Source: a virus. From it: a stretch of DNA of 64,000 bases. The notes beneath the pieces are model-generated. The model searched no databases, was not told the origin of the DNA, and saw only the letters and a list, made by a program, of their open reading frames with translations. Of this stretch, positions 6,617 to 64,000 are shown in pieces. Position numbers and translations under genes: made by a program. Within the stretch, counting starts at the first letter, position 1. Every line of letters begins with the position of its first letter. Where the stretch lies: positions 1-64,000 of the IMG/VR virus record IMGVR_UViG_3300025000_002059. One strand, written 5' to 3'.

Positions 6617-8125
6617 ATGTGTTTGGTTTGTCGGCGTATTTTTGTTTTAAGGAGGAAGAGAGAGTTGCACGTTAAAGATTATGTAGATGCGATATTTAAT
6701 TCATTAAGAAATCTTTTATCAGATGATGAGATCAGCAAAATTGACAAAACAGAATTAATAAAAGATGTGTTACTCAACATAGAAAAAAAAGTATTACCAT
6801 TCGGAGATTTGCCACTTGCTGATAGGGATAGAGAGTGGGATGGTTCAGGAGCTGAAAGTAATATTCGCGAATGGGCCGGAGGCAAAGATAATTTGGATTG
6901 GGCAAAATATGGCAAAGGATTCTTGTGGGTTAATGATGAGGACAGGGAAAAGTTTGGTAGTTATAAATTTCCGATTGCCGATGTGATCGATGGAAAATTG
7001 ATTGCTATACCGAGGGGAATATTTGCAGCTGCTGGTGTTTTGAGTGGTGCTAGGTTAGAAGGTGGCGTGGGCCAATTAAATGTGCCAAAGGAAGACATAC
7101 AGGGCTTAAAGGATCATGTCGATAAGTACTATGCCAAGATGAGGAAAGAATGGGATGACGATAAGTTAGTTAGTCCGTTCAAGGAAAAACAAGTATTGGA
7201 AAAATTGATTGATTATAATCCAATGGTTCCTAGTTTTGGGAAGGTTAATTGTGAGATTGCATTTGTGGGGGCATCTCCGGGTAAGATTGAGTCGATAAGA
7301 GGTGAACCTTTCGTTGGACCGTCCGGTGAGACATTTAATGAGTTGTATCTTGGGCCATTAGGATTAAAGCGTGACGATATATTCCTTACTAATGTTGTGC
7401 CAGATTTACTAGTTGACGATATGGGCAATGCGAGAGAACCAAATAATAGGGAAGTTAGTGCTTGGAGCGGGTGGCTTGATGGCGAGATAGAACGATCTAA
7501 TCCTAAAGTTATTGTTGCTCTAGGAAAAATCGCAAAGAAAGCTCTTGGTGAAGACGTTGATTTTGTTTTGCCACATCCGATAGCTATCCGGAAGTATAGT
7601 AATTCAGGAGAAGTTGGAAGGAAGATAAAGCAAATCAAGTTAAAACTTGATGAAATTAACAAAGGTTTGCCTAGTGTTAATGATGTTCATGTACAAAGTA
7701 CAAGTTGGAAAAGACCAAGAAGGACACAGAAATCAGATAATCATTATAAAGATTATGCCGATATATTTAAGGCTGATGATGAAAAGCACCTTATTTATGG
7801 TGTAGTCTTAGAACCCGGTAGTGTCGATGCCCAGAATGATACTATAAGTGCAGAAGAAATTGAACGAGTGGCGCATGTTTATCTCCAAAATTCTAGAATT
7901 GTTGGCAATGGCCATAGATCAAAGGCGAAAGCTGATGTGGTCGAAAGTTTTATAGCGCCGATAAACTATGAATTTGGAAATCAAAAAATTACTAAGGGAA
8001 CATGGGTTATGGTAGTTAAAGTCAATGATGATAAATTATGGGAAGGTGTTAAGGAAAAATTGTATACAGGGTTCTCTATTGGCGGCTTTTCAAAGAGGAT
8101 TCTGGTGAATGAGCCAGCCAATTAA
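6617..8125 (+). CDS. Prohead protease (XkdF-like C-terminal domain) fused to a uracil-DNA glycosylase family-4-like domain
   Basis: Central FVGASPG..E...GEPFVGPSG, FLTNVV, PKVIVALGKIA and LPHP; C-terminal YGVVLEP..DAQND, VVESFIAP, GTWV and TGFSIGG. Confidence 0.75.
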   Translation: MCLVCRRIFVLRRKRELHVKDYVDAIFNSLRNLLSDDEISKIDKTELIKDVLLNIEKKVLPFGDLPLADRDREWDGSGAESNIREWAGGKDNLDWAKYGKGFLWVNDEDREKFGSYKFPIADVIDGKLIAIPRGIFAAAGVLSGARLEGGVGQLNVPKEDIQGLKDHVDKYYAKMRKEWDDDKLVSPFKEKQVLEKLIDYNPMVPSFGKVNCEIAFVGASPGKIESIRGEPFVGPSGETFNELYLGPLGLKRDDIFLTNVVPDLLVDDMGNAREPNNREVSAWSGWLDGEIERSNPKVIVALGKIAKKALGEDVDFVLPHPIAIRKYSNSGEVGRKIKQIKLKLDEINKGLPSVNDVHVQSTSWKRPRRTQKSDNHYKDYADIFKADDEKHLIYGVVLEPGSVDAQNDTISAEEIERVAHVYLQNSRIVGNGHRSKAKADVVESFIAPINYEFGNQKITKGTWVMVVKVNDDKLWEGVKEKLYTGFSIGGFSKRILVNEPAN

Positions 8126-9056
8126 GGATGGTGAGCATCAAATGTTAATCAATGAATTAAAAGATCTCAACGTGGAAGAAGTTTCGCTTGTAGGAAAACC
8201 CGCAAATCAAAGAAAATTTCTTTTATTAAAAAATCAAGAAGAAGGGAGCTGTAATGCAGAAATGTTAAATGAAATTTTAAAGTCTCTTAGTGAATTGGAT
8301 ATTGATCTTGAAAATGAGGAATCGCTTGAGAAAACAATGAAGGCTATGAAGTTAGATACTAATGCCGTTAAGGCCGTTAAGGGTGCGCTGAAATTGATGG
8401 AGGCGTATAAAGAGCAGATTCCAAAAGGGATTTTGGATAAACTCATGTCGATGATGATGGAGTATGAAGAGGGAATGGATTATATGGAACATTCCCAAAA
8501 AGAAAAAATGGGGGCAGGAAAGGAGAAAGAGAAAGGTATGGGCATGAATCCAGAAAAGAAAATTAAAAAGGAAGATGGCTCATTGGATTTGAGTGCTATT
8601 CCAGAAGAATCCCGCGAATTGGTCCAGATGTTATGGAAAGAACAGGAGACAGCGGTTAAGAAAGCTCAGGAATTAGAAACGATTCTTAAAGCGGAACGCG
8701 AAATAAGGATTGCTAAAGAGTTCTTAGATCGTGGGATTGCCTTCCCGAATATTGGGACAGCAGAAGCTGTTGGATCGGTTCTCAGGAAAGCCTACGATGT
8801 TTCCGAGGATTATGGAAAGCAACTAGAAGGTATCCTGAAAGATGCAAATACCAAGATCGAAAAGTCCGAGCTTTTTGTTGAAAAAGGTTCAAATGCAAGA
8901 TCATCGGCAGATACAACTTGGGCCAAGATTGAAGAACTGGCCAAGGGAATTGTCATCAAGGGTGAAGGTCAAACTATGGCGCAGGCGATCGATAGAGTTC
9001 TGGCCGAAAATCCAAAACTCTATGATGAGTACACCAAAGAAAGGAGCGGAAAATAA
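8109..9056 (+). CDS. Capsid scaffolding protein
   Basis: N-terminal EVSLV.KPAN, acidic coiled coil, located between protease and capsid genes. Confidence 0.65.
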   Translation: MSQPIKDGEHQMLINELKDLNVEEVSLVGKPANQRKFLLLKNQEEGSCNAEMLNEILKSLSELDIDLENEESLEKTMKAMKLDTNAVKAVKGALKLMEAYKEQIPKGILDKLMSMMMEYEEGMDYMEHSQKEKMGAGKEKEKGMGMNPEKKIKKEDGSLDLSAIPEESRELVQMLWKEQETAVKKAQELETILKAEREIRIAKEFLDRGIAFPNIGTAEAVGSVLRKAYDVSEDYGKQLEGILKDANTKIEKSELFVEKGSNARSSADTTWAKIEELAKGIVIKGEGQTMAQAIDRVLAENPKLYDEYTKERSGK

Positions 9057-13547: not shown

Positions 13548-13964
13548 TTGTTATTAGACGAAGTCGCAAGACACCTTCAAGATGATTCAGTCGGGACAAT
13601 CGGAGTAAATATATTTAAGTCTTACTCACCAAATGCACCGGATACGACTCTTACCGTTTATGAAACAGGAGGTTTTCGACCGCAGGATACATTTGGATCG
13701 ACATGCGAAGTGGCGTGGGAAAATCCTTCGATTCAAATAGTATCAAGATCGACGGATTATGAGACTGCTAGAAGGACAGCGGAGAATGCCTACCGATCAC
13801 TTATAAGTGTTACAAATGAGACGTTAAAAGCTTCAAGTTCTGATGCCGGAAGTTTTTATTTGAGAATTTGGGCGGTACAGTCTCCATTTCGATTAGGCGT
13901 TGATGAAAATGAACGAAATCTGGTAGCCTGCAATTTTGATGTCATGAAAACTTTATCGACATAG
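13548..13964 (+). CDS. Tail terminator (minor capsid-like)
   Basis: VYETGG, PSIQIVSR and QSPFRLGVDENER motifs; TTG start after GGAGG. Confidence 0.75.
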   Translation: MLLDEVARHLQDDSVGTIGVNIFKSYSPNAPDTTLTVYETGGFRPQDTFGSTCEVAWENPSIQIVSRSTDYETARRTAENAYRSLISVTNETLKASSSDAGSFYLRIWAVQSPFRLGVDENERNLVACNFDVMKTLST

Positions 13965-14708: not shown

Positions 14709-15122
14709 TTGGCCGTACATGGAAAGTCAGCGGGGTTTTCAATTACAGATACTGGAGGAACACCAAGATTATTGAATTGTTGGCTTACGAGTGTTTCATT
14801 CCCAAAAACTGCGGATACCGTAGAGGTATCAAATTTTTGTAGTTCTGCAAAAGAGTATGTTGCTGGTCTAAGGGATGCAACTATTTCAATTGAGGGTATA
14901 TGGGCAACGACACCGGACGCATATTTAAGTGGAATCCTTGGCACGTCAGCAGCCTTTGTTTATTATCCGGGGACCACAGCGCCAGTTGCAGGAAAATATG
15001 CGAAATATACTGGTGTGTGTTTTGAGACAAGTTATGAGGTTCCAACGGCCATTGATGCTGCCGCAACCTTTACGGCTGAATTTCAAGTAACTGGAACTGT
15101 TACAAGATCAACCGCAGCCTAA
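14709..15122 (+). CDS. Major tail tube protein
   Basis: TADTVEV..KEYVAGLRDATISIEG and FTAEFQVTG; precedes tail chaperone. Confidence 0.75.
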   Translation: MAVHGKSAGFSITDTGGTPRLLNCWLTSVSFPKTADTVEVSNFCSSAKEYVAGLRDATISIEGIWATTPDAYLSGILGTSAAFVYYPGTTAPVAGKYAKYTGVCFETSYEVPTAIDAAATFTAEFQVTGTVTRSTAA

Positions 15123-43311: not shown

Positions 43312-44367
43312 ATGGCTAGGAAAAAGAATGAAGAAGAAGTCACCCTAACCAATCAGGAAATGATTCAAAAAGAAGAGCGCCATAGAAAAGATTTAGAAAA
43401 TAAACTAAAGGCATCGGAAGCATCAGCGGAAGATCAGAAACAATTTACTCCCTTGGTCAAACTTACTAAGGATTTAAGAAGCGCAAGCCGGACATTGAAT
43501 CCACAAGAAGCCCGGTATCTAGTGGACAGGTACTACCAAATCCAACAATACCGGACCAGCGCCAAGAATCAGATTAGAGCATCGGAAAGCGAAGAACCAA
43601 ATGAAGTTATTGTCTGGTTTGCAGAGAACTTTGAGGAACTGGAGAAGAACATAAAAAAGGCGCTGGATGCTTATACGAGTAGTCATCCGGTCGGAGCTTG
43701 GGCCAAATCGGTGATCGGCGTAGGTCCGACATTCGCAGCCGGGCTTCTAGCGCACATTGATGCGAAGAAAGCACCAACAGCCGGAGCCGTGTGGAGTTAC
43801 GCAGGATATAATCCAAGTGTTGAATGGTTAAAAGGTCAGAAGCGTCCATGGAATGCTGATTTAAAAAAACTATGTTATCTCATAGGTGAATCATTTGTAA
43901 AGGTTTCCAATAATCCTAAAGATATCTATGGTAAATTATATCGCCAAAGAAAAGATCAGGAGATAGCGAAGAATATAGCGGGAGAATTTGCGGAACAAGC
44001 AATATCAAAGCTGGAGAAATTCAAGATAGGTAAAGATACTGATGCTTACATATGGTATGCAGGATGTCTGACTGAAGATAAAGCCAGAGCAATTCTTCTG
44101 GGTGAAAAATCCGGATCAGCCAAAAGTCTAGCGGGAGAAAAGGATTCTGGGATTCGTATGCTTCCACCAGCACATATCAACGAGCGGTCCAAGCGATATG
44201 CTGTTAAAATATTCCTAGCCCATTTTCATGAGGTCTTATTTGAATATGAATTTGGGACCAAGCCACCAAATCCATATGCTATCTCAATCCTGGGACATGC
44301 ACATAAGCTGGAAGTTCCAAACTATGAAGTATTTAAAAAAGCGATGGAAGAAGATCCGTCACTATAG
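43312..44367 (+). CDS. TasA-like Nop-domain RNA-binding protein (IS110 C-terminal-related; no RuvC or HNH domain)
   Basis: Coiled coil, then SVIGVGP..AAGLLA.I, AVWSYAGY, WN..LK, YGKLY..RK and H...RSKRYAVKIFL; no DEDD domain; TIGR-like array begins at its stop codon. Confidence 0.8.
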   Translation: MARKKNEEEVTLTNQEMIQKEERHRKDLENKLKASEASAEDQKQFTPLVKLTKDLRSASRTLNPQEARYLVDRYYQIQQYRTSAKNQIRASESEEPNEVIVWFAENFEELEKNIKKALDAYTSSHPVGAWAKSVIGVGPTFAAGLLAHIDAKKAPTAGAVWSYAGYNPSVEWLKGQKRPWNADLKKLCYLIGESFVKVSNNPKDIYGKLYRQRKDQEIAKNIAGEFAEQAISKLEKFKIGKDTDAYIWYAGCLTEDKARAILLGEKSGSAKSLAGEKDSGIRMLPPAHINERSKRYAVKIFLAHFHEVLFEYEFGTKPPNPYAISILGHAHKLEVPNYEVFKKAMEEDPSL

Positions 44368-45107
44368 CCAAGTTACTTTGATTTTAAACAAAGCCATTGA
44401 GCGAACCATCAGACAAGAGAGTATCAACAATAGAAGAGTGAGCCAACAAGCGTGAGCTAATTGCATCCCATAAAAGCGAGCCACTAACCATGAATTATGC
44501 AACGAAAGAAAGCGAGCCATAGCAACAGATTACCCCATCTCGACGAGAGCGAGCCAATGGTCTATGAAAGCAGAATTGACCATCAAACAAGAGTGAACCG
44601 TGTGCAAAGATTGTATCAATTAGGAGAAGTGAGTCATTAGATTAGAATAGCACCATATCCGCAAAGCGAGCCGTTAGATCAGAAATTTATTTTATTCATT
44701 CCCATTGAGTGAGCCAAGAGCCAAGGTATACGAAAGCACCAACAACAACGAGCGAGTCATCCGATATGAAATTAGATACAAATGCGTTGAGCGATCCAAA
44801 ATGAATTGTAGCGAAACAAAGCGAACCATGGGTATGGAGAAATACCATTTATCTCCGAGTGAACCAAAAAATTAGAATAAATCGCCAAAGTAGAGTGAGC
44901 CATATGAAATAGATTAAATCACACTCTAAGAGCGAGCCAAGCTAACTTAATATAAAATGAACGAACCAGAATGCTTGATTGGGACAAAAATAACGAGTGA
45001 GCCACTAAAGGGAATTATAATATTTAATCAAAAAATGCAATGAGCGAAACAAAATATTTTGATCGAACCATTATAAAGGAGATATTCCGGGGATAACGAG
45101 TGAGTCA
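44366..45107 (+). ncRNA. TIGR-like dual-repeat array, block 1a (about 20 units)
   Basis: Example: AACCA-tcagacaa-GAGAGTATCA-acaatagaa-GAGTG|AGCCA-acaagcgt-GAGCTAATTGCA-tcccataa-AAGCG|AGCCA; period about 36 nt. Confidence 0.85.
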
Positions 45108-45118
45108 TGCAGGAAAGC

Positions 45119-45402
45119 GTGATGGGATGTTGGCTTAGAAGCAGCCATGGCTGGAAGGCTGATTGCTTTATGCAATCCATCTAAGGAGTGGGGCGATGGC
45201 TATTTGTGACTTGATTGTTTTTCCACATTATTAGCAATCTGAACCCGATGAGGGAAAATGAATGTGGTAGTGTTACGATGATACCGATGCATTTGTAGTG
45301 ACAAGGTAACATAAAAGCTGCAAATGAAGGAAAGCGTATAGCTTGGGAGTTGCTTTAGAGTTACACTTGGTTATCCCTTTTGGCGTAATAGCACACCATC
45401 AC
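45119..45402 (+). ncRNA. Structured RNA mimicking 23S rRNA H43/H44 (L11-binding GTPase centre)
   Basis: GGATGTTGGCTTAGAAGCAGCCA (45125-45147), CATCTAAGGAGT (45178-45189) and GCGTAATAGCACAC (45383-45396), closed by GTGATGG/CCATCAC. Confidence 0.7.
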
Positions 45403-45404
45403 AT

Positions 45405-46251
45405 GAGTCATGCGGAATGATTGAACGAAATAGTGAGTGAACCATCAATAATGACCGGAACATTGTGTCAGAGTGAGCCACGATATAAGAATAGCAACAT
45501 TAATAGTTGGAGCGAACCAATCAAGCCGAAAATTAACATTCCCTATGAGTGAGTCAGGTATATTTATGAAAAATATGAACGAGTCGAAGGAAGTAAGGGT
45601 ACCAATCTCATAGAGCGAGCCATAAGGAATAATGGCAACATCACAGGAAAGCGAACCACTAATAGCGAGTTACATCATTATACGAGAGTGAACCGTCAGA
45701 AGCGAAACTAAGTATCATATATTCAGAGTGAATCGGGATATTGGAGAGCACCACACATACTGAGTGAATCAGGACTATGGAAAGCAGCAGATAAGCCGAG
45801 TGAGCCGAATAATGGGATAGCACCACGCTGGTTAAGCGAGCCATTGAAGGAAATAGGATCAGAAATGCAGAGCGAGCCGCAGGATGTAAAAGCACAATAA
45901 AAAGAGAGCGAGCCAGACCAACCGAAAGCAGTATTGAGCGAGAGCGAGCCAGAGGAAAAAGATTAATTCATTGCAGGACAACGAGCCATAACTACAGATT
46001 AACGACAAGATTATAAGAGCGAACCAAAATCACGCTTAAATAAAATTGAAACATTAGCGAGTGAGTCATAGGACTTGATTGAATCACCCCATCGGAGCGA
46101 TCCATATTAAGCGAGAATAACCAGCGTAGGTTGAGTGAGCCAAATGGAAGCGAGAGTACCAATTGCATAGAGTGAGCCAGAACTGGTGATTAAAATCATT
46201 AATGCGAGAGCGAACCATGGCAAGAGAGGACCACAAATATAGAGTGATTCA
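45405..46251 (+). ncRNA. TIGR-like array, block 1b (about 23 units by length)
   Basis: Example: AGCCA-aatggaagc-GAGAGTACCA-attgcata-GAGTG|AGCCA. Confidence 0.85.
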
Positions 46252-54209: not shown

Positions 54210-55151
54210 ATGGCAGGATTGAAAGGAAAACTAGCCGATAAGGCAAATGGGACCAGTGTGGTAAAGAAGGAACTACCAAAGGCAACATTCAGTAACTTCC
54301 TAGCCCAAGATGGGGTAAAGGCGAAGATCAACCAGATCGTCGGCGGTAAAGACGGTCAGAGATTCATCACAGCGATTCTTTCAGCGGTCAGCACGAACCC
54401 GTTACTCGCCGACTGCGACCATGGAACCATACTAAGCTGCGCATTGCTGGGAGAGAGCCTAAAGCTTTCACCCAGCCCGCAACTTGGGCAATACTACATG
54501 GTGCCATTTGACGATAATAAGAATAATAGAAAAACAGCCCAGTTTATAATTGGGTATAAGGGCATGGTGCAACTTGCCGTGCGATCTGGATACTACAAGA
54601 AAATAAATGTTATCGCCATTAAAGAGGGAGAATTACAGCACTTCGATCCACTCAATGAAGAAATTTCCTGCCTTTTGATTGATGATGAGGATGCCCGCGA
54701 ACGAGCCAAGACCATCGGATACTACGCGATGTTCGAATACATGAATGGATTTAGGAAAGTCATGTACTGGAGCAAGGCTAAGATGGAGGCCCATGCACTA
54801 CAATACTCAGCCGGATTCCGAGCGGACCGGAAGAAGGGAAACTCATACACCTTCTGGAGTAAAGACTTTGATGGGATGGCCTTTAAAACAATGTTGAGAC
54901 AACTCTTGTCCAAATGGGGTATAATGTCAATAGACTTACAGACAGCCTACGAAAGAGACATGGGGACTATAAGAGAAGATGGGACCGTCGAATTTGTGGA
55001 TAACGTAGAGGACATAGAATCAAACGAGACAAAGCCAGAACAGCAGCAAGAGCAGGCGGACCAAGCAGGGCAGCCGGAGACAGGGCAGGATGGGCAGCAG
55101 GCGGAACAACCGGATATTAGCCGGGAGCAGGACCAGACACCCGCAGAGTAA
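54210..55151 (+). CDS. recT: RecT family ssDNA annealing recombinase
   Basis: LSPSPQLGQYYMVPF, AQF.IGYKG..QLA.RSG and FDGMA.KT.LR. Confidence 0.93.
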   Translation: MAGLKGKLADKANGTSVVKKELPKATFSNFLAQDGVKAKINQIVGGKDGQRFITAILSAVSTNPLLADCDHGTILSCALLGESLKLSPSPQLGQYYMVPFDDNKNNRKTAQFIIGYKGMVQLAVRSGYYKKINVIAIKEGELQHFDPLNEEISCLLIDDEDARERAKTIGYYAMFEYMNGFRKVMYWSKAKMEAHALQYSAGFRADRKKGNSYTFWSKDFDGMAFKTMLRQLLSKWGIMSIDLQTAYERDMGTIREDGTVEFVDNVEDIESNETKPEQQQEQADQAGQPETGQDGQQAEQPDISREQDQTPAE

Positions 55152-55439
55152 GGAGATCGAGAAATGTTCATGACCGTAGATATTATCCTTCAGGAGTTGG
55201 AGATCAGGATCAATAAATTGAAAGAATTCGAAACTGAAGCTTTAGAAATAAAAGATGTTGATCTTTACCGATTCACTAAGACAAGGCGGACCGAGTATGA
55301 ATCATTCAAAAACTGGATAGAAGCGAGGAATAATTAATTAAAAAAAGAAAAATGCCCATTAGATTTATAAATTAAATCCTTGGGCATTTTTTGTATTATA
55401 ATTCTAATTGGACAAAGTTAAGAAGGGCGGGCCAAAGGA

Positions 55440-55769
55440 ATGAAACAAAAATGCGATCCACATAAATGTATTGGAAATTTTGAATGTGAAAAATGCCCAG
55501 CTAGATGGACACCGAAGGATCCGGACTGTAAAGATTCGTTAATGTATAACTGTGATAATTATAAATCTTGTGATGAGTGTTATGGTAATAAACCTAATAC
55601 TTGGCCGCGCAAGGATAATATTAACATATTACTTAACTTATCAACCAAAGAAAAGGTTATGGCATTTGATTCGATGGTTAAAAGATACGTTTCGGCAAAA
55701 AATCACCTTGATATGGAAATTTGGATAGCGAATGTGCTTAGTTTTTACATCAAGAAATACTTAAAATAG
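55440..55769 (+). CDS. Hypothetical Cys-rich protein
   Basis: Intact ORF with upstream TATAAT. Confidence 0.45.
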   Translation: MKQKCDPHKCIGNFECEKCPARWTPKDPDCKDSLMYNCDNYKSCDECYGNKPNTWPRKDNINILLNLSTKEKVMAFDSMVKRYVSAKNHLDMEIWIANVLSFYIKKYLK

Positions 55770-55774
55770 AAACT

Positions 55775-55957
55775 TTATTGAAGAGATTTCATTCTTACAT
55801 AATCAGAGGGATTTGTTTTTTCAAGACTTGCACGTTCAGTAATTAATTCCCACTCTTTATCGCTAAACCGGATGGGATGTGTAAGGCGAGGTTCATTAAC
55901 TCTTTTACGACCAGCGCCAATCCGTCTACCACCGCGAGTTTTTAGAGTTTCAGACAT
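55775..55957 (-). CDS. Ribbon-helix-helix/CopG-like DNA-binding protein
   Basis: RGG.R.GAGRK, IRFSDKEW..I and S.YVR. Confidence 0.65.
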   Translation of the reverse strand: MSETLKTRGGRRIGAGRKRVNEPRLTHPIRFSDKEWELITERASLEKTNPSDYVRMKSLQ

Positions 55958-56073
55958 AATGTTGTCCCTCCCTTTTTATGTTTATTGTAATGCATAATTC
56001 AACATAAAGCAAGAGACAAAATAAGGTGCCCAGATGGCAAGTCTAGGCACCAGAGAAAAAGGAGGAATGAGCA

Positions 56074-56607
56074 ATGACTATAAAAGTACCACGGCAATGG
56101 CTTTGTATGGGGAAAACTCAGATATTGAATAATATGTTTGAGCCGATTCAAAATAGACCAGATGCGGTCCTAAAACCATATGGCGGGCTTTGGGTATCTC
56201 CATATGTACGGAATGGGAAATATAAAAGTCACTGGCACGAATGGTGTGAACAGAATAAATTTATGACAAGCACCGAAGGAACGATAATAAGACTCCAAGA
56301 TAATCTAAATGTCTATATAATAAATTCGCAAATTGACTTAATGAAACTTATAGAAGAAGTTGGAGAATATAATCCATTTCTGGGATTAGGCTTTGAGCCA
56401 TGGAAAACGATAGATTTTGAAGAAGCAGCCAAACGATATGATCTGATTTATTTAACAAGGCAAGGATTAAATTGCACTAGACTTCCATTTATGAATCAGA
56501 AATTTAACTTATATACATGGGATGTATCTTGCGCGATTTTATTTCATTTTGGGTGCATAAAAGGGCAATTCCCTACGAAGGTACGCGCTCCTGAAGAGTT
56601 AGACTAA
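56074..56607 (+). CDS. Hypothetical protein
   Basis: KPYGGLW.S...W.EWC..IDFE..YD.I.LT..WDV; AGGAGG RBS. Confidence 0.6.
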   Translation: MTIKVPRQWLCMGKTQILNNMFEPIQNRPDAVLKPYGGLWVSPYVRNGKYKSHWHEWCEQNKFMTSTEGTIIRLQDNLNVYIINSQIDLMKLIEEVGEYNPFLGLGFEPWKTIDFEEAAKRYDLIYLTRQGLNCTRLPFMNQKFNLYTWDVSCAILFHFGCIKGQFPTKVRAPEELD

Positions 56608-57625
56608 TCTCAAAATCACTTTCTTGGCCTTCAACAAATAATTCCAAGCGCGTGAAAAGAGATTTAATCTGGTCTGCTCTATAAATATTTTTAAGAGATA
56701 TTCTGAGTAATTCAATTTCAGGTTTTTTGACTTCAACCAAAGTTAATTGACTTGGAGGAATTTCTTCTTGATCCATCTTATCAACTACTTCCTCTTTTTT
56801 CACTATTGCATTTTCATTGCTTGGTGGAACTAGGGGAACCACTTTCTTTACACGTTCCTTGTATTTACGTTTAGGAGGTGTAGTTTCTGAATTAGCAGCA
56901 GCACCTTGGCCTTCAGCAGAGTCAGCAGCTGCTTTATCATTATCCCTTTTCGTCTGTGCTTGATTCAGTCTATTGTCTCTAAAATTACGCAATACATCTA
57001 AAGCATCATCACCAACTAAAATTTGCTTTCCTTTCCGGGCAACTTTAAAATTCCATGATAGTTCTGATAATTGAGCGGGAGCACAATCAAGACCTTTGAG
57101 TATTTCAGTCGTTGTATGAAGTCTCCTTAATTCAGCGTAGATCTTTTGACCTTCTTTATATTCAATAGCGTTGAGTTCGGAGACTTTTATCCATTCTCCA
57201 TATTGTATCCTTTTCATCCAATCCAAATTAAAAATACAAGATAATTCTAATATTTGCTCTAAAGAACAGTCTAATGCATTTTGTAATTCAACTATGTCAT
57301 ATATTTTCCTGAGTTCATTATAAACTTGAGCACCATCTTGAATAGGTAATTCTTTAAGTTCATCAATCGTAATTTGTTCTCTACTTTTTACCTTCTCCAT
57401 TAATTCCAACAATTTCATCTCCCTTAGAGTTGTGATAAAACAAGGACCAGCACCCATAATTAATCGTCTTTGAAATTTATCAGGTTCCTGTTCGGATGGC
57501 ATTTTGACGGATTCATGTTTACGGAGCCGGGCGGCCCTACCGTGAATACCATTTCCAGTCTTTTTCTTTTCCCTGACATCCTGATTAAAAATCCATTCAA
57601 CATCTTCGTTATAGATCCCAATCAC
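56573..57625 (-). CDS. Hypothetical protein with duplicated helical domain
   Basis: G.Q/K.Y.ELR.....E....LDC occurs twice. Confidence 0.55.
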   Translation of the reverse strand: MIGIYNEDVEWIFNQDVREKKKTGNGIHGRAARLRKHESVKMPSEQEPDKFQRRLIMGAGPCFITTLREMKLLELMEKVKSREQITIDELKELPIQDGAQVYNELRKIYDIVELQNALDCSLEQILELSCIFNLDWMKRIQYGEWIKVSELNAIEYKEGQKIYAELRRLHTTTEILKGLDCAPAQLSELSWNFKVARKGKQILVGDDALDVLRNFRDNRLNQAQTKRDNDKAAADSAEGQGAAANSETTPPKRKYKERVKKVVPLVPPSNENAIVKKEEVVDKMDQEEIPPSQLTLVEVKKPEIELLRISLKNIYRADQIKSLFTRLELFVEGQESDFEISLTLQERVPS

Positions 57626-57782
57626 ATCCTGTCAAATTCGACATTTCATTTCTTACATTTTAAATATACTTCAATTTATAGACCATGTCCACATTTTGTA
57701 TATTTCATAATATGACAAATTATTTTGTTTTATTTTTATGCTATACTTGGGACAAGTTTATTTATATTTGAGGTGGTTATGA

Positions 57783-57989
57783 ATGGCTTTGACACTTTGG
57801 TCCGGCAGAGGAACATGGGAAGGCTGGAAAATACGGAAGCAATATCAAGGCTGCAAATTTGGAGAGTCCGTCCTTGTGGATCCCGATGGAGTGCCATACA
57901 GTCCCAGCGATATACTAGCGAGCAGAAATTCTGCAAATCTTTCTGAAAAAGAGAAAATTAATAAAAGCAATAAATCGATAAAGGAATAA
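57783..57989 (+). CDS. DUF3653-like small phage protein
   Basis: G.WEGWKI...LVDPDG..YSP.DI; GAGG RBS. Confidence 0.45.
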   Translation: MALTLWSGRGTWEGWKIRKQYQGCKFGESVLVDPDGVPYSPSDILASRNSANLSEKEKINKSNKSIKE

Positions 57990-58525
57990 ATCCATAAATC
58001 CATATAAGAATATATCGATACATCCATAAAGGAATATTTGCTGAAGATTCTATTTAATAGACAGAATGAAAGAATTGGATTTTGTTTATAAGTTTAGGAT
58101 TTTATGTAAATATTCCATTTTTTAGTGATTGCGTATCGATATCCATATATCAATATATCCATATATCCATACGGAGCATAATTATCGTAAGAATCAATTC
58201 CTGATCGCGACGAGTAGCCTAACATTTTCTGTCAAATTGTCTAAGAGTGTATTCCTATCCATATATCAATACATCCATATATCAATACAAGAGGGACTTA
58301 TGGACCAAATATGTAATTTAATGGATTCTTTCAAATTGTAGGCAAACAGAATATTCTCAAATCTATACATCAATAAATCCATATTTCCATAAATCAATAT
58401 ATCGATAAATCAATACAGACCATTTTCGTGAGATCACGAAAATGATAAAAATATAACCATATAAGTTATAAACGGCAATTATAACTCATACGGTTATATT
58501 TTCGATTTTATGGATATTTATGGAA
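57963..58525. repeat. Clusters of tandem 8-bp repeats (TA[A/T/C]ATC[C/G/A]A), candidate parS centromere
   Basis: e.g. TATCGATATCCATATATCAATATATCCATATATCCATA at about 58133-58170; similar at 57970-58030, 58255-58290 and 58362-58415. Confidence 0.55.
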
Positions 58526-58709
58526 ATTATCAGGGGTAATAATTAGAACATCGCTGGCAGACTTCCTCATCAAAATTTTCCCGGTAACAGAATTTATCTT
58601 GGTTATATCGACAAACGAGAAAAAATTCTTTTCCAGTTAAGCAGAGTGGGGATCCGCAGCCAAGCGGAAAATCATCGCACCCATCGCACATTTCATTTTC
58701 ACATCCCTA

Positions 58710-58718
58710 TGCTATAAT
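58710..58718 (+). promoter_or_regulatory. Extended -10 promoter for array block 5
   Basis: TGCTATAAT 20 nt upstream of the first repeat. Confidence 0.6.
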
Positions 58719-59403
58719 AATTACATAGGACAAGTATAAGCCATGAACTGCGATTAAATCAATTATTGTAAGCGAGCCAAGAATAGAGATTTTACAGAAT
58801 TTTGAGCGAGTCAACTAGGTAGATTTTTTCAAATGTCCAAAGCGAACCAAAGCGCTTGAGAGCGCCAAAATTGGCAAGTGAACCATCAGTAGCAATAGTG
58901 CCAAACTATCAGAGTGAGCCAAAGTATTTGAGTTAAAATCATAAAAAGGTAAGTGAGTCATCGAACCAGATTATAAACATTGAAGAATAGCGAACCATTT
59001 TTGATTAAGAGAGTGAGTCAAAGTTTCCGATCGTACCTAAGTAAGGGAGCGAGTCCAAAGGTTTTTCAGTGTACCAGAAAGAGGGAGCGAGTCATACCAA
59101 ACAGAAAAAAGAACGAACCACGAACATAGACTTATTCATTTTACGAGAGTGAGCTAATAATGCCGATAGCAACAAAAACAGTGAACGAGCCAAGAATACT
59201 GAGAGTACCATATTTCGAGAGCGAGCCAGTAAGATGGGTATTTCCAAAAAAGAGAAGCGAGCCAAGAACTCTGATATCCCAGACCAAGCAAGCGAGTCAA
59301 GGTTTCCGACCATACCCAAACGTAAGGGATCGAGTCAAGGTTTCCGAGTGCACCGAAATTAGGGATCGAGACATGATAGCTGATTTAATCGTAAATAATG
59401 ATC

Positions 59404-59436
59404 GTTTCAATCCACGCACCAGAAATGAGGTGCGAC
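59404..59436 (-). CRISPR. Solitary type I-C-like CRISPR repeat (not an array)
   Basis: Minus strand GTCGCACCTCATTTCTGGTGCGTGGATTGAAAC; stem CGCACC/GGTGCG; ATTGAAAC end. Confidence 0.75.
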
Positions 59437-59839
59437 AATAAATATAAGTGAGCCAGCTGCATTGAGATTACCAATGTAGAGAAGCGAACCAACGAATGTG
59501 ATTAGTTTACAATTGAAGAGTGAACCACACGATAAGATGTCACCGTATGTTTGGAGTGAGCCAAAGAATTAAAAAAACATTATATGCAAGCGAACCAAAA
59601 ACCTTAGACAATATCAAACCCCAAGAGTGAGTCAAGCTTTCCGAGAGGTCCAGAACGGATGAACGAATCATGTTTCGTGAGAGCACCAGAAACATGGAGT
59701 GAGCCAAGAACACTGAGATACCAATTGCGAGAGAGCGAGCCAATAACTACGATCGATCACTGAAAAGAAGCGAACCAGTGTTGCTGGATTTGAGCAAAGT
59801 CTCTGAGTGAGTCATGGAGACAGGATAAGATCCAAATAT

Positions 59840-59874
59840 GTCATGACTTTCTATTAGTCGTGTGGGATTGAAAC
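59840..59874 (+). CRISPR. Solitary CRISPR-like repeat (not an array)
   Basis: GTCATGACTTTCTATTAGTCGTGTGGGATTGAAAC; stem CATGACT/AGTCGTG; ATTGAAAC end. Confidence 0.65.
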
Positions 59875-61283
59875 ATAGCTGCTAAACGAGCCAAAATATA
59901 GAATAGCAACATTAATAGTGGAGCGAACCATGGCGAATGATAATGACAATTTCCATTGAGTGAACCATTAGGAATGAGAGAACCAGTTAAATGAGTGAAC
60001 CATGTATCGTGAAAAATTTCAAGCGTTACGAGTGAGCCAACAGAGTTAATCATTACAATTGTTCAGAGCGAATCATTAAACTTGATTGTATCAGAGGTTA
60101 GAAGTGAATCAATGGGACGGAGAGTACCACAAACCATTAGTGAGCCATTCAATCGGAGAGCACCGTAAAGAACGAATCATAAGCGGCGAAAGAATCAGAA
60201 CCTCGAAGTGAACCATGTATTGTGATATTTCATAATCTGTGAAGTGAGCCATCATTAGGGATTGTTTCAATTATTAGGAGTGAACCACTTTTTGTGAGAA
60301 ACACAGCGATATAAGGGTGAGCCAAGAACACCGACAGTCAACAAAGCCACAAAGCGAACCAATGTTGGAGAGAGCACCGTGCCATTCGAGTGAACCGATG
60401 TCGCACCATTTTTAAACAGAGCGAGCCAATGACGATGGAGAGCACCATGATCACGGAGCGAACCACCATTAGGGATAGTAACATATTTTTGGAGTGAGCC
60501 GAGGATACTGACATTTAAACCAGATGGAAAGAGTGAGCCAAAGTATCCGAATACAACAACCTTCTAGAGCGAGTCACCCCACAAGAGCACACCCATGTCC
60601 GTTAAGCGATCCATCAAGGCATAGAGCACCATCAAGCATGAGTGAATCGACATTCGTGAGATACCCAATACTTGTGAGTGAGCCAGCATATCTGAATATT
60701 TCAATAGTCGTGAGTGAGCCACTGCCGCAAGATAATACCATGTCCATAGAGCGATCCACTACGCAAGATAGCACCACAACTGTAGAGTGAACCATCGGGG
60801 AGAATTAATCATCGGTTAGAAGTGAGTCATTAAACTTGATAGCACCATATCCGCAAATCGAGCCAATCATGCTGAATATTTCAATGAGCCAGAGTGATCC
60901 AATTATTTAGATCGAATCAATAAATCTGAGTGACCAAAAATGAACAAAGAAGTCTTACAATATGGCAACATATGTGATAATGTATGGATAAGCCAACGCT
61001 GCTGGCGAACTTGACTAGAGTACCAGATGCCAGCAAAACGAGTCGACAATGATGAGTGACCAACAATAATGAGCGTAAAAATTGAACAAAAAAATGACCT
61101 TCGCGGAGTTTGCACCTCCCGAAAGTCGTGGCTAAAGACCAAACTCTTTAGACTTGAAATTTAAATCTAAGGACGGAACCCTTAGACTTAAGTACTTAAT
61201 TTGGATTAAGTATAACAAAGGATACTCAACGAATCAAGGGGGACAAGGGTAGTATCATTTGTAATATTTTCAAATAAAAGTAA

Positions 61284-61320
61284 AGTCGGGTCAGTATCTT
61301 TAGCTGGCCCGGCTTTTTTT
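61284..61320 (+). terminator. Rho-independent terminator
   Basis: AGTCGGGTCAG...CTGGCCCGGCTTTTTTT. Confidence 0.65.
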
Positions 61321-61434
61321 GTTTCCCAAAAATTACAAGGTGAAAGAATTGGAGGGACAATAGTTTTCTATCTATCGAGCGTCCGTCAGATTGTATATAA
61401 TTTAGTTACTCACCTAAAAAATGGGGGGAGAGTC

Positions 61435-61683
61435 ATGGAGGTTTCAGTAAGAGCCAAAGAAATATATAAATTTATCGAAAATTTTAATGGCCACCCAATT
61501 TTTATAGACATCATGACCATCGATCTGGGAGATAGGGGGACGGTTAGGTTTGCATTGTGTGAATTAATAGATGTTGGATCCGTAAAACCTGTAAGGGCTA
61601 AAAATAAATTTGATAATATTTACCAAGTCGAGTATCACATTATCAATAACAATGATCCAACAAGTGAATCATTCTGGAAATAA
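61435..61683 (+). CDS. Hypothetical protein (possible winged HTH)
   Basis: Intact ORF with RBS and upstream TATAAT. Confidence 0.45.
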   Translation: MEVSVRAKEIYKFIENFNGHPIFIDIMTIDLGDRGTVRFALCELIDVGSVKPVRAKNKFDNIYQVEYHIINNNDPTSESFWK

Positions 61684-61701
61684 ATATGGGGAGGGGAATT
61701 T

Positions 61702-62043
61702 ATGATTAATGAATTGGAATTACTTTCAAAGAAAGAATTTTTAGAATTGGATATCGAAGATTTTAAATCATTATGGAGGGAACTAAAGGGTGAGATCTTG
61801 GATAAGAGGGACTTATATCAAAGATGCGATCCAGAGAAGTATGAAAGAGAATTGCATATTCTCCAATCCGTATTAAAGGCAATGGATCTAGCTGTGTCAG
61901 TTAAGATAACTGAAAGAAGAATAAAGGATAAAGTTTGCCAGTTTTGCAGAAATACAGAACTTGACACCAGAGGATATGGTACCTTGTGTACAAATTGTTT
62001 TAATGAGTATGAAGAGAGAATGGGCAGGAGGATTGTAAAATGA
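61702..62043 (+). CDS. Hypothetical protein with C-terminal zinc finger
   Basis: CQFC...LCTNC. Confidence 0.55.
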   Translation: MINELELLSKKEFLELDIEDFKSLWRELKGEILDKRDLYQRCDPEKYERELHILQSVLKAMDLAVSVKITERRIKDKVCQFCRNTELDTRGYGTLCTNCFNEYEERMGRRIVK

Positions 62044-62870
62044 ATGATGTCACTTCAACATTTCGACCAGCAGTATTTCCGGCAGACATAATGTATGACG
62101 AAAATCTTACCTCAAGTCAGAGACTAATACTGATTGTTTTATTCACTTACACGAACGCACATACTAATACAGCTTTTCCAAGTTATCAAACGATAGCCGA
62201 ACGGTCTGGATTTGAAAGGAGGACATGTATAAAATTAGTCGATGAATTAATAACTAAGGGATACATCGAAAAGCAAGAAAATTACACAAAAACAAAAGGT
62301 GGAAAACCTAATCAGACATCAAATTTATACACGCTACACTTTAAGGAGAGACAAGTAGGTAGTGATTTTAAATCACTAGGGGGTAGTGATTTAAAATCAC
62401 TAGGGGTAGTGAACGACGATCACCGGGGTAGTGATTTAAAATCACCCAAACTATCCATAGGAACTATCCATTGTGATCTTAATAATAATGATGAGGAAAA
62501 AATCGAAAACGAAGACTTTAAAAAATCGGTTCATCTCTGGGAAAATATCATGGGTAATGCAATTTCAGGAGTCGAAAATGATTATATCGACGAATGGATA
62601 TCACAATTTAATATGCCATTCGAAATGGTGAAGGAAGCAGTTGATCGCATGATTGCGTTGAATATAAGACCAAGGAATATCAGATATGTCGATTCAATAA
62701 CAAGAGGATGGCATAAGTCCGGGATCAAAACATTACAAGCGGCAAAAGAGGAAGTTCTTGATCGTGAAGCTAGTAAATTAAAAAAGAGACAAGGGAATAA
62801 GCCATTAAAACAGGGAGAGCAGAAGCCAGTAGAGCCATCTAGCTCAAAATACGATAAGTTTTACCTTTAA
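62040..62870 (+). CDS. Phage replication initiator (HTH plus DnaD/DnaB_2 domain)
   Basis: AFPSYQTIAE..G..R.T, SNLY, and C-terminal YVDSI..GW...GIKT. Confidence 0.88.
   Translation: MNDVTSTFRPAVFPADIMYDENLTSSQRLILIVLFTYTNAHTNTAFPSYQTIAERSGFERRTCIKLVDELITKGYIEKQENYTKTKGGKPNQTSNLYTLHFKERQVGSDFKSLGGSDLKSLGVVNDDHRGSDLKSPKLSIGTIHCDLNNNDEEKIENEDFKKSVHLWENIMGNAISGVENDYIDEWISQFNMPFEMVKEAVDRMIALNIRPRNIRYVDSITRGWHKSGIKTLQAAKEEVLDREASKLKKRQGNKPLKQGEQKPVEPSSSKYDKFYL
62358..62447. repeat. Palindromic iterons inside the initiator gene (lytic origin)
   Basis: GGTAGTGATTT(T/A)AAATCAC three times plus one degenerate copy. Confidence 0.8.
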
Positions 62871-62890
62871 ACGAAGGGCCGTGATTAGCA

Positions 62891-63661
62891 TTGACTAACG
62901 GTTTTGAACGAATCATTGAGAACTTAAGACTAAAGCATGAAGCATTTAAGGCAAGCAATACACAGCCCATGGAGCCGATAAACTACGAGTGCTCGATTTG
63001 TGAGGACCGGGAAATCGTTTTGATCGAGCAGGAAGATGGTTCAGTTTCAGCACGAAACTGTCAATGCAAAGCACAGAAGATCCAGCGACGAATGTTCAAA
63101 GCATCGGGACTGACCGAAGAACAAGCTTTGATGACGATAGATGACTATAACGTTTCACCAGATACCATGAAGATGTACCAGATGACGAAAAATTATTTAT
63201 GCGGACAATCATGGCGGGAAGGCAAAGGATTTGCACTGGTCGGAAGTGTGGGAGCAGGCAAGACGATGCTGGCACAGATCATCGCAAGCGAGATCATGCG
63301 CGACATGAAGACCGTGATCTTTATCCCAACGACAAGCCTGATGGCTGAACTTTTGGCAGCCCAATTTTCAAATGACAAATCAGAATTTGAGCAGCGTATA
63401 GACAAGTTAATCAAAGCTGATGTTGTTATTTTTGACGATATAGGAAAAGAGAAACCTACGGAATGGGTCCAGAATCAATATTTTAGAATCATCGACGGTC
63501 GCTACAACAACCGGAGAGCAACCGGATATACATCGAATTATGATTTTGATCGATTAGCAGATCGGTTTTCTGAATTTGGGGATGCGATCATATCCCGGAT
63601 CATAGCGATGACGCGAGATTATGTAGTCAATGTTAAGGCCAAGGATTACAGATTGAAATAA
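62891..63661 (+). CDS. dnaC: DnaC/IstB-like helicase loader ATPase
   Basis: CxxC..CxC zinc site, GSVGAGKT, IFDDIGKE and TSN...SRI. Confidence 0.9.
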   Translation: MTNGFERIIENLRLKHEAFKASNTQPMEPINYECSICEDREIVLIEQEDGSVSARNCQCKAQKIQRRMFKASGLTEEQALMTIDDYNVSPDTMKMYQMTKNYLCGQSWREGKGFALVGSVGAGKTMLAQIIASEIMRDMKTVIFIPTTSLMAELLAAQFSNDKSEFEQRIDKLIKADVVIFDDIGKEKPTEWVQNQYFRIIDGRYNNRRATGYTSNYDFDRLADRFSEFGDAIISRIIAMTRDYVVNVKAKDYRLK

Positions 63662-64000
63662 GGGAGCGGATCACATGTCAGAAATTGAACAAAAAAAAGC
63701 CAGCACACACTAATAATGTACTGACAAAGGGAAGAAAAACGACAGACCACGATACCATCAACAATATTCAGTCATATATGGGATTCCGCAATGCCATATA
63801 GACAAGCATAATGATACCAATAATTTGAAATTTTGTCCAACTAAAAATATTCCATTTGTAGTAATATAAAGGTAGGACAAAATAATAAATTCTAAGGGCA
63901 CATATTAACGGTACAAGCGTTCAGGATTAATGATTAGGGGGAAAGGTAATGAGGACATTCATTGAGAACAAAGAGCGGGCAGACATGGATATTATTGTCG

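Follow-up and report, generated by a model that had tools for sequence, protein, structure and literature searches.

A solitary CRISPR-like repeat of type I-C architecture within a phage TIGR array

The window analysed here covers the initial 64 kb of an IMG/VR virus record (IMGVR_UViG_3300025000_002059) that is 87,959 bp long and carries direct terminal repeats. Inside one unit of its TIGR (tandem interspaced guide RNA) array the window contains a 35-nt element that we name R2. R2 is a real CRISPR repeat of type I-C architecture; its identity, its insertion into the array, its recurrence and its sense orientation are each borne out by the data given here. It lies in non-coding DNA of a mobile element and is unlinked to cas genes, as befits a solitary repeat. 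We hypothesize, tentatively and at slightly less than an even chance, that R2 is comparable to the RNA anti-CRISPRs (Racr): a solitary repeat that would be expressed on the array's precursor transcript (pre-tigRNA) and would serve as a decoy for the Cas5c protein and Cascade complex of the host.

Read from its 5' end, R2 comprises a GU overhang, a 7-bp stem, a 7-nt loop, UGG and GAUUGAAAC. When R2 is folded alone, the stem joins 59842-59848 to 59856-59862 with a single G-U pair, at a predicted -7.2 kcal/mol; the original prediction had assigned a repeat with a 7-bp stem to these 35 bases on the plus strand, and both the bases and the stem hold up on reading and folding the sequence. Type I-C repeats are described as having a 7-nt stem flanked by overhangs of 2 nt on the 5' side and 11 nt on the 3' side, and recognition by Cas5c of B. 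halodurans is reported to centre on U22-G23-G24 just past the cut and on the base of the stem, with tolerance in the loop and the 5' overhang (PMC8524198). R2 shares with these Cas5c substrates the 2-nt GU overhang, the 7-bp stem, the U-G-G after the stem (TGG at 59863-59865, directly past the predicted cleavage site) and the AUUGAAAC/U end (59867-59874 reads ATTGAAAC); one extra G separates UGG from AUUGAAAC. It differs from the repeats described in PMC8524198 in its 7-nt loop and 12-nt rather than 11-nt 3' overhang, and from type I-C repeats at large in its stem (CAUGACU/AGUCGUG, not CGCACCC/GGGUGCG) and in being solitary, without spacers or cas genes. The determinants that this literature names for Cas5c, namely the stem base and the U-G-G past the predicted cut site, are present in the sequence of R2.

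Might TIGR sequence have come to look like a CRISPR repeat by chance? The array's own loop repeats (GA..TTTCA) do give antisense ATTGAAA words, and R2 fails the model searches reported below. We nevertheless give this explanation almost no credence. The whole 64-kb window has exactly two occurrences of the 10-mer GGATTGAAAC, one at R2 and one on the minus strand at 59404-59413; shuffled sequences lead one to expect 0.13 occurrences per window, and only 1 of 100 shuffles reaches two. Furthermore, we took all GGATTGAAA sites on both strands of the window phage and four relatives (n=15) and scored, directly upstream of each, the combination of GT, a stem of at least 5 bp with at most one G-U, a loop of 4-9 nt and a further 1-2 nt. 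This architecture is present at 4 of the 15 sites, all four of them inside syntenic TIGR arrays, and at 0 of the 11 elsewhere; the random pass rate per site is 0.0032 for stems of at least 5 bp and 0.00031 for stems of at least 7 bp, so that, given the 9-mer, the architecture of R2 has P ~3e-4. Also speaking against chance are the status of R2 as an insertion relative to a related phage and the existence of three further copies in the same syntenic array.

R2 interrupts an array unit that a related phage keeps intact

Each unit of the array comprises, in order, an edge repeat of the form AGYGARYCA, spacer A (9 nt), a loop repeat with a looser consensus (GA...CCA) and spacer B (also 9 nt). Through TasA, the protein presumed to process these arrays and act as their effector, we found four related phage records (G001-G004; 82-88 kb; TasA 77-79% identical), and in every one of them a syntenic orphan array is bordered by the same genes. 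In a MAFFT alignment, the homologous unit of G002 (AGTGAGTCA, GTAGGACAG, GATTATTTCA, TAGCAGCTA) is without a segment of about 41 nt that contains R2 in the window, and the two versions of spacer B, TAGCTGCTA in the window and TAGCAGCTA in G002, differ by one base. Because G002 keeps this unit without the segment, the alignment identifies R2 as an insertion into a single array unit, after the loop repeat and before spacer B.

A second repeat, R1, lies on the minus strand of the same array. At its site, G002 and G003 have an ordinary 36-nt unit beginning ATCGAGCCA/ATCGAACCA, the interior of which is replaced in the window phage; a minor contig that co-occurs in run X1 likewise has an ordinary unit there. 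The region occurs in public runs from groundwater and sediment metagenomes of three studies. Contigs from runs of two other studies cover the R2 region, one (X5) spanning 59803-60073 and the other (X6) 59599-59849, which takes in only the first 10 bases of R2. The X5 contig shows 7 differences and 1 gap from the window over 271 nt, and the 2 differences located among those listed both fall outside R2. Since these contigs cover the region, R2 is not an assembly artefact.

Four captures in two phages

Two further repeats, R3 and R4, are found in the syntenic array of G003, so that a survey of homologous arrays, which the original prediction had proposed, did find embedded repeats. The four captures occupy four different units in two of the five phages: R2 and R4 sit in the loop region with both spacers of their units kept, whereas R1 and R3 replace the interior of theirs. 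R4 is predicted to form a 7-bp stem with one G-U pair (-10.6 kcal/mol), and its unit retains the original spacer B, ATAGTCGTG (as in the window unit at 60677), behind a new CCA. Three of the four copies (R2, R3, R4) are in the sense orientation of the array and R1 is antisense. The unit layout bears out the original description of R2 as a second, different repeat of CRISPR type, in array sense and at the junction of loop and spacer B, and the coordinates place it 403 nt from R1, in the opposite orientation.

As to family, we defined the canonical type I-C repeat by the pattern GTCGCAC-N9-10-GTGCGTGGATTGAAA, which retrieved at least 120 stretches of prokaryote genomes; among those listed, the majority carry tandem copies by the tens, and Bacillota account for many of them. 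Both of the loci that we examined have cas genes beside the array above curated cut-offs: cas5c, cas8c, cas7c, cas4 and cas1c in one (L113), and cas8c, cas7c, cas4 and cas1c in the other (L067), where open reading frames (ORFs) of at least 150 aa were scanned. By their sequences, R1 and R3 are assigned to this canonical family. Each is 4 edits from the nearest natural consensus, all in the loop or inner stem, a comparison that is biased by the outer positions having been fixed in the search pattern. Among viral contigs the pattern retrieved 89 stretches, many of them with a single copy; for those with one or two canonical copies, TIGR edges were seen only around the G003 locus. A covariance model was built from 57 natural I-C repeats together with R1, R3 and R4, and R1, being in the training set, scores 45.9 bits against it; in Rfam, R1 reaches 16.4 bits, below threshold.

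The copies could also be read as neutral scars, left when a recombining, hypervariable TIGR array took up, by recombination or by whatever process diversifies it, repeat-sized pieces of host CRISPR arrays that have no function and are decaying. We consider this possible, on the unlikely side. It fits the presence of repeats in just two of five related phages, at non-homologous units, and the co-occurring strain that has no R1. The stems of R1 (6 bp) and R3 (5 bp) are shorter than those of the 57 natural consensus repeats, which by eye mostly have 7-8 bp; one copy is antisense; and the tail of R2 is of irregular length, with no array cognate to R2 having been found. In G004, the unit homologous to that of R4 contains additional sequence that looks unrelated and might be what is left of a decayed repeat, and microhomology could have favoured accidental capture, given that the I-C stem arm GCACC(A) is identical to the end of the array loop repeat, GAGAGCACCA. 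Against scars, every insert is one complete repeat, closely trimmed to at most 11 flanking bases per side, with no spacer DNA and no partial repeat. Only two units of the window array are oversized, and both of these foreign inserts are CRISPR-like. Tail and stem base, the Cas5c determinants, are intact in all four copies, the differences being confined to the loop and inner stem; the stems of R2 and R4 are entirely different and yet still paired; and three copies of four are in sense. The original prediction had taken two captures to suggest selection. The recurrence itself stands, and extends to four captures in two related phages; selection is suggested by that recurrence and by the whole-repeat size of the inserts.

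We made some further observations on these arrays. In G004 (locus L059, minus strand), the unit homologous to that of R4 (about 7404-7467; spacer B ATAGTCGTG) is 64 nt long, and its different extra segment forms an AT-rich hairpin with ..TTGATTGCCCA before spacer B; this segment may be a decayed repeat or an independent insert. The same syntenic orphan array of G004 holds a 392-nt non-TIGR insert (about 8076-8467, minus) that has no Rfam match at gathering thresholds. In the window, loop repeats such as that at 60370-60379 have at their 3' end GCACC(A) (GAGAGCACCA), the sequence of the type I-C stem arm, and the unit at 60389-60419 contains a loop-like GATGTCGCACCA; in G003 (L044, 13849-13857) the first 9 bases of R3 occupy the loop-repeat position. 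We also tried, and rejected, the idea that TIGR spacers target the I-C repeat: the 8-mers that R1, R2 or R3 share with the arrays are, among those listed, at chance level.

The TIGR array, its transcription signals and TasA

The array has the hallmarks of dual-repeat TIGR systems, namely alternating CCA-ending repeats, 9-nt spacers, a 36-nt period and a Tas (Nop) protein encoded in the genome (Table 1). It resembles the dual-repeat TIGR-TasA of Faure et al. 2025 (PMC12045711) in its order of edge, 9-nt spacer A, loop and 9-nt spacer B, its 36-nt period and its Nop-type TasA; it differs in that the published arrays are described as having 5-15 units beside tas, whereas this one has about 58 units, lies 14 kb from tasA and holds foreign CRISPR repeats.

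Table 1. Positions of R2, of the array around it and of associated features; coordinates are those of the window unless G003 is named.
Feature	Position	Strand	Description	Basis
R2	59840-59874	+	35-nt solitary type I-C-like CRISPR repeat	sequence, fold, tail count, chance test
3' tail of R2	59863-59874	+	UGGGAUUGAAAC, 12 nt	analogy with the Cas5c cleavage site described in PMC8524198
Insert containing R2	59835-59875	+	about 41 nt (AATAT + R2 + A) relative to the homologous G002 unit	MAFFT alignment, BLAST
Enlarged unit with next edge	59806-59893	+	unit 59806-59884, 79 nt against the usual 36	
Edge repeat of R2 unit	59806-59814	+	AGTGAGTCA	
Spacer A of R2 unit	59815-59823	+		sequence read
Loop repeat of R2 unit	59824-59834	+	GATAAGATCCA	
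Rest of R2 unit	59835-59884	+	AATAT, R2 (59840-59874), ATAGCTGCTA	
Edge after R2 unit	59885-59893	+		sequence read
R1	59404-59436	-	canonical type I-C repeat by sequence, 33 nt, GTCGCACC...GGTGCGTGGATTGAAAC; antisense to array	
Segment containing R1	59401-59446	+	46 nt: ATC + reverse complement of R1 + AATAAATATA, in place of a 36-nt unit	
R3	G003 13849-13880	sense to array	GTCGCACCATTGATTAGTGCGTGGATTGAAAT; fills interior of a 49-nt unit	
R4	G003 15070-15102	sense to array	GTCGTTCCCCATCGTGGGAGCGTGGATTGAAAA; inserted after loop repeat	
Orphan dual-repeat TIGR array	58735-60940 (approx.)	+	about 58-60 units, 36-nt period	
Extended -10	58710-58718	+	TGCTATAAT, just upstream of array	sequence read
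Intrinsic-terminator-like hairpin	61282-61316	+	14 pairs and a T run, downstream of array	
tasA	43312-44367	+	351-aa Nop/IS110-C-type, nuclease-less Tas protein	PDB sequence matches

That the array reads in the plus direction follows from its repeats ending in CCA (the published rule, PMC12045711), from tasA and all arrays of the genome lying on that strand, and from the positions of the extended -10 and of the terminator-like hairpin. The extended -10, TGCTATAAT, is not listed by a consensus promoter scan because of its weak -35. Separately, the repeat tail TTGAAA of R2 and a CAAAAT 18 nt downstream form a weak promoter-like site (59868-59897, plus; 9/12); the region has 15 promoter-like sites where 8.5 are expected, which is near chance.

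The 351-aa Tas protein matches two kinds of chain among PDB sequences: TasH (E 7.1e-8) and 9mty (E 1.4e-12), the latter deposited as 'Transposase IS116/IS110/IS902 C-terminal domain-containing protein'. We call it TasA because no nuclease domain was matched in it; its homologues number 3,286. The Pfam Nop profile did not detect tasA of the window genome, which the PDB sequence search does detect. The gene lies 14 kb upstream of the orphan array and no tas gene adjoins the array; a 350-aa ORF upstream of the array (56573-57625, minus) was considered as a Tas protein and rejected, having no Pfam, PDB or PHROG match.

Around R2 lie genes of a kind common in phages, namely those for YqaJ and RecT (recombination), for an initiator that resembles DnaD and for an IstB/DnaC-like ATPase. 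A megablast search of 55000-64000 against GenBank phages gave no match, and the DnaD-like neighbour gene led to no relatives among viral contigs. Rfam, at gathering thresholds, gave no match in the window, nor in the four relatives over their first 20 kb. The sole Rfam match in seven distant TasA loci is a type II hammerhead on a TasA-bearing viral contig (L009, 1643-1709, plus; 40.2 bits, above the gathering score). Upstream of the array and beside the DnaD/DnaC-like genes, 57948-58430 is dense in AT-rich repeats of 8-nt period (ATAAATCC/ATATCCAT blocks), which we guess to be an iteron-type origin region. A non-TIGR insert of about 330-350 nt is conserved between the tasA-proximal arrays of the window (45099-45431) and G003 (86964-87313; locus L048).

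A possible decoy for host Cas5c, and points for and against it

Solitary repeats are common in viruses, 2,103 having been reported, and one of type I-C, RacrIC1, inhibits I-C systems and is made on a bicistronic RNA with acrIC5 (PMC10651486). By analogy, R2 would be transcribed within a long pre-tigRNA that starts at the promoter near 58.71 kb and extends as far as the terminator at 61.3 kb. Dual-repeat Tas proteins are reported to cleave within edge repeats (PMC12045711; preprint 10.64898/2026.09.09.750476), and both edges that flank the R2 unit are intact, with at most one mismatch from AGYGARYCA; for these two reasons we infer that TasA-type processing at both edges would release R2 in an RNA of about 79 nt. 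No Cas5c or Cas7c gene was found in the five phage records; therefore any Cas partner must be that of the host. Host Cas5c would bind the R2 hairpin and its UGG...AUUGAAAC tail, possibly cutting after 59862, and the product would have a crRNA-type (CRISPR RNA-type) handle followed by TIGR sequence, without a proper 3' repeat. Because it has such a handle and no proper 3' repeat, this product would titrate Cas5c and Cascade subunits into useless complexes, as known Racr do. The orphan TIGR array would also carry several decoys, R2 in the window and R3 and R4 in G003; R1, being antisense, may act differently.

Several observations weigh against such a decoy. Some concern structure. The fold of R2 is unexceptional (z = -1.57; 16 of 200 shuffles are equally stable), and its tail, at 12 nt, exceeds the canonical 11 by one extra G. 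In the 88-nt unit context, the predicted lowest-energy fold does not contain the I-C hairpin; the 5' arm of R2 is paired there with GAGUCAUGG, from the upstream edge and spacer A. The one promoter that is evident lies antisense to R1.

Other points concern family and distribution. Against the covariance model R2 scores 13.7 bits (E 2.9, through the tail only), which is not significant, and Rfam CRISPR-DR models gave no match to R2 at E up to 10. An exact search for R2 in viral contigs yielded 0 arrays; relaxed patterns yielded 0 in genome contigs of 185,579 species and 0 in JGI metagenomes; the 18-nt 3' half gave 15 single copies in metagenomes and 0 in arrays; and, with as many as 3 mismatches allowed, 0 of 5 and 0 of 401 genomes had an R2-type repeat. 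These array searches were pattern-based and can miss variants. Comparison of 2,448 spacers from sampled I-C arrays (the 120 genome loci listed and 89 viral stretches) with the five phages gave chance-level matches and no convincing one, the best being 22 of 23 bases. No CRISPR-like repeat was found in G001, G002 or G004, on inspection of 31 near-matches to the tail and in a model search. Nor was the canonical I-C family found at 7 distant TasA loci or at 75 further ones (1.08 Mb), surveys that extend from tasA for 10 kb in each direction and would overlook an orphan array such as that of the window. Of the nine ORFs that neighbour R2, 0 have an annotated PHROG and no acr gene was recognised among them. 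Most acr genes belong to no family.

R2, moreover, is single: no second copy was found in tandem, and it does not form a tandem, cas-adjacent array. R2 is divergent: its stem differs, its tail has a G too many, it has no significant model match, and an array cognate to it turned up in none of the collections searched. The SRUFinder tool requires of a solitary repeat a coverage of at least 90% and a bit score of at least 41.1 (PMC10651486); with Rfam and the covariance model as proxies, our scores suggest that R2 would fail this test and that R1 would pass it.

Apart from these points, we noted that the 5' arm of R2, GUCAUGAC, is a perfect 8-nt palindrome (also given as GTCATGAC). Within 59806-59852, GTCATGAC can pair with the upstream edge and spacer A sequence GAGTCATGG, a pairing that prevails when the fold of the entire unit is predicted.

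Rather than trapping Cas5c, R2 could supply a guide: its handle and the next 20-35 nt would form a crRNA-like RNA that sends host type I-C Cascade to a target of benefit to the phage, with the uninserted allele in competing relatives, or a host promoter, as candidates. The 20 nt that follow R2 (59875-59894) match the uninserted unit of G002 (3906-3887) at 18 of 20 positions, with mismatches at positions 6 and 12. In type I complexes, every sixth position is generally unpaired. The matching G002 sequence is preceded by TTC, which is the I-C protospacer-adjacent motif (PAM) according to PMC8406640, and phages are described as having crRNA-like regulatory RNAs and mini-arrays (10.1101/2024.10.29.618823; PMC11656645). 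R2 is like these in joining a phage repeat to a short, partly complementary sequence; it differs from those described in that no second repeat was found with it and no host target was identified. Indeed, no second repeat, even a degenerate one, occurs at spacer distance; the complementarity ends after 20 nt; and the sequences downstream of R1, R3 and R4 have no PAM-flanked matches in the five genomes. We judge a guide of this kind to be improbable.

It is also conceivable that the hairpin works within the TIGR system itself, as an expanded loop element of a functional TIGR-derived guide RNA (tigRNA) that serves the TasA ribonucleoprotein through stability or the recruitment of a partner. R2 and R4 both follow a loop repeat, both leave the two spacers in place, and CA or CCA again stands just ahead of spacer B; TasR is reported to make no sequence-specific contacts with the middle of the loop repeat (PMC12045711), and some TIGR clades are described as having extended hairpins in the loop region (preprint 10.64898/2026.09.09.750476). 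What such a role leaves unexplained is the exact CRISPR I-C tail, GGATTGAAA, and the replacement of whole unit interiors by R1 and R3, and we hold it to be very improbable.

Returning to the decoy hypothesis, we analogize a wider version of it as a launch pad: TIGR arrays would serve as platforms for RNA anti-CRISPRs, with the array providing transcription and edge cutting by TasA freeing the embedded repeats. Cas5c and Cascade of the host would be caught by the sense copies R2, R3 and R4; R2 and R4, which lie in the loop, would stay in a working tigRNA and physically couple the TasA complex to a Cas5c-binding hairpin; and antisense R1 would yield an anti-repeat RNA that pairs with the handles of host crRNAs. 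This wider version we regard as unlikely.

Relation to known solitary repeats and significance

Like RacrIC1 and other viral solitary repeats (PMC10651486), R2 is a single cas-less repeat in non-coding phage DNA, with a hairpin and tail of I-C style, and like RacrIC1, which is part of a longer transcript (PMC10651486), it would be carried on a longer RNA, as proposed here from sequence. It differs from the Racr described there in lying inside a TIGR guide array, not behind its own promoter or beside an acr gene, in being close to no known repeat, and in having several different companion copies per array, one of them antisense. The terms 'anti-CRISPR' and 'CRISPR repeat' have 0 occurrences in PMC12045711, as do 'anti-CRISPR', 'Racr', 'CRISPR repeat' and 'solitary' in the TIGRFinder preprint (10.64898/2026.09.09.750476). 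We found no paper that links TIGR arrays with solitary CRISPR repeats or anti-CRISPR, bearing in mind that the supplementary SRUFinder output of PMC10651486 on IMG/VR3 may list R1 or R3 and that supplementary figures of PMC12045711 may include arrays with inserts. TIGR-Tas arrays have been described, as have solitary repeats that act as RNA anti-CRISPRs.

Even as scars, the embedded repeats would preserve a record of the way in which foreign DNA enters TIGR arrays. If they are functional, phage TIGR arrays would be multi-purpose RNA factories, and counter-defence would be part of what phage TIGR-TasA does in nature. A tigRNA would then be seen to tolerate, at its loop position, a cargo of about 40 nt, which would be useful for engineering, and the divergent stems of R2 and R4, with their conserved tails, would map what Cas5c requires of a decoy. 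Were TIGR arrays indeed launch pads for RNA anti-CRISPRs, two RNA-guided systems that stand on opposing sides of the conflict between phage and host would be directly linked in function.

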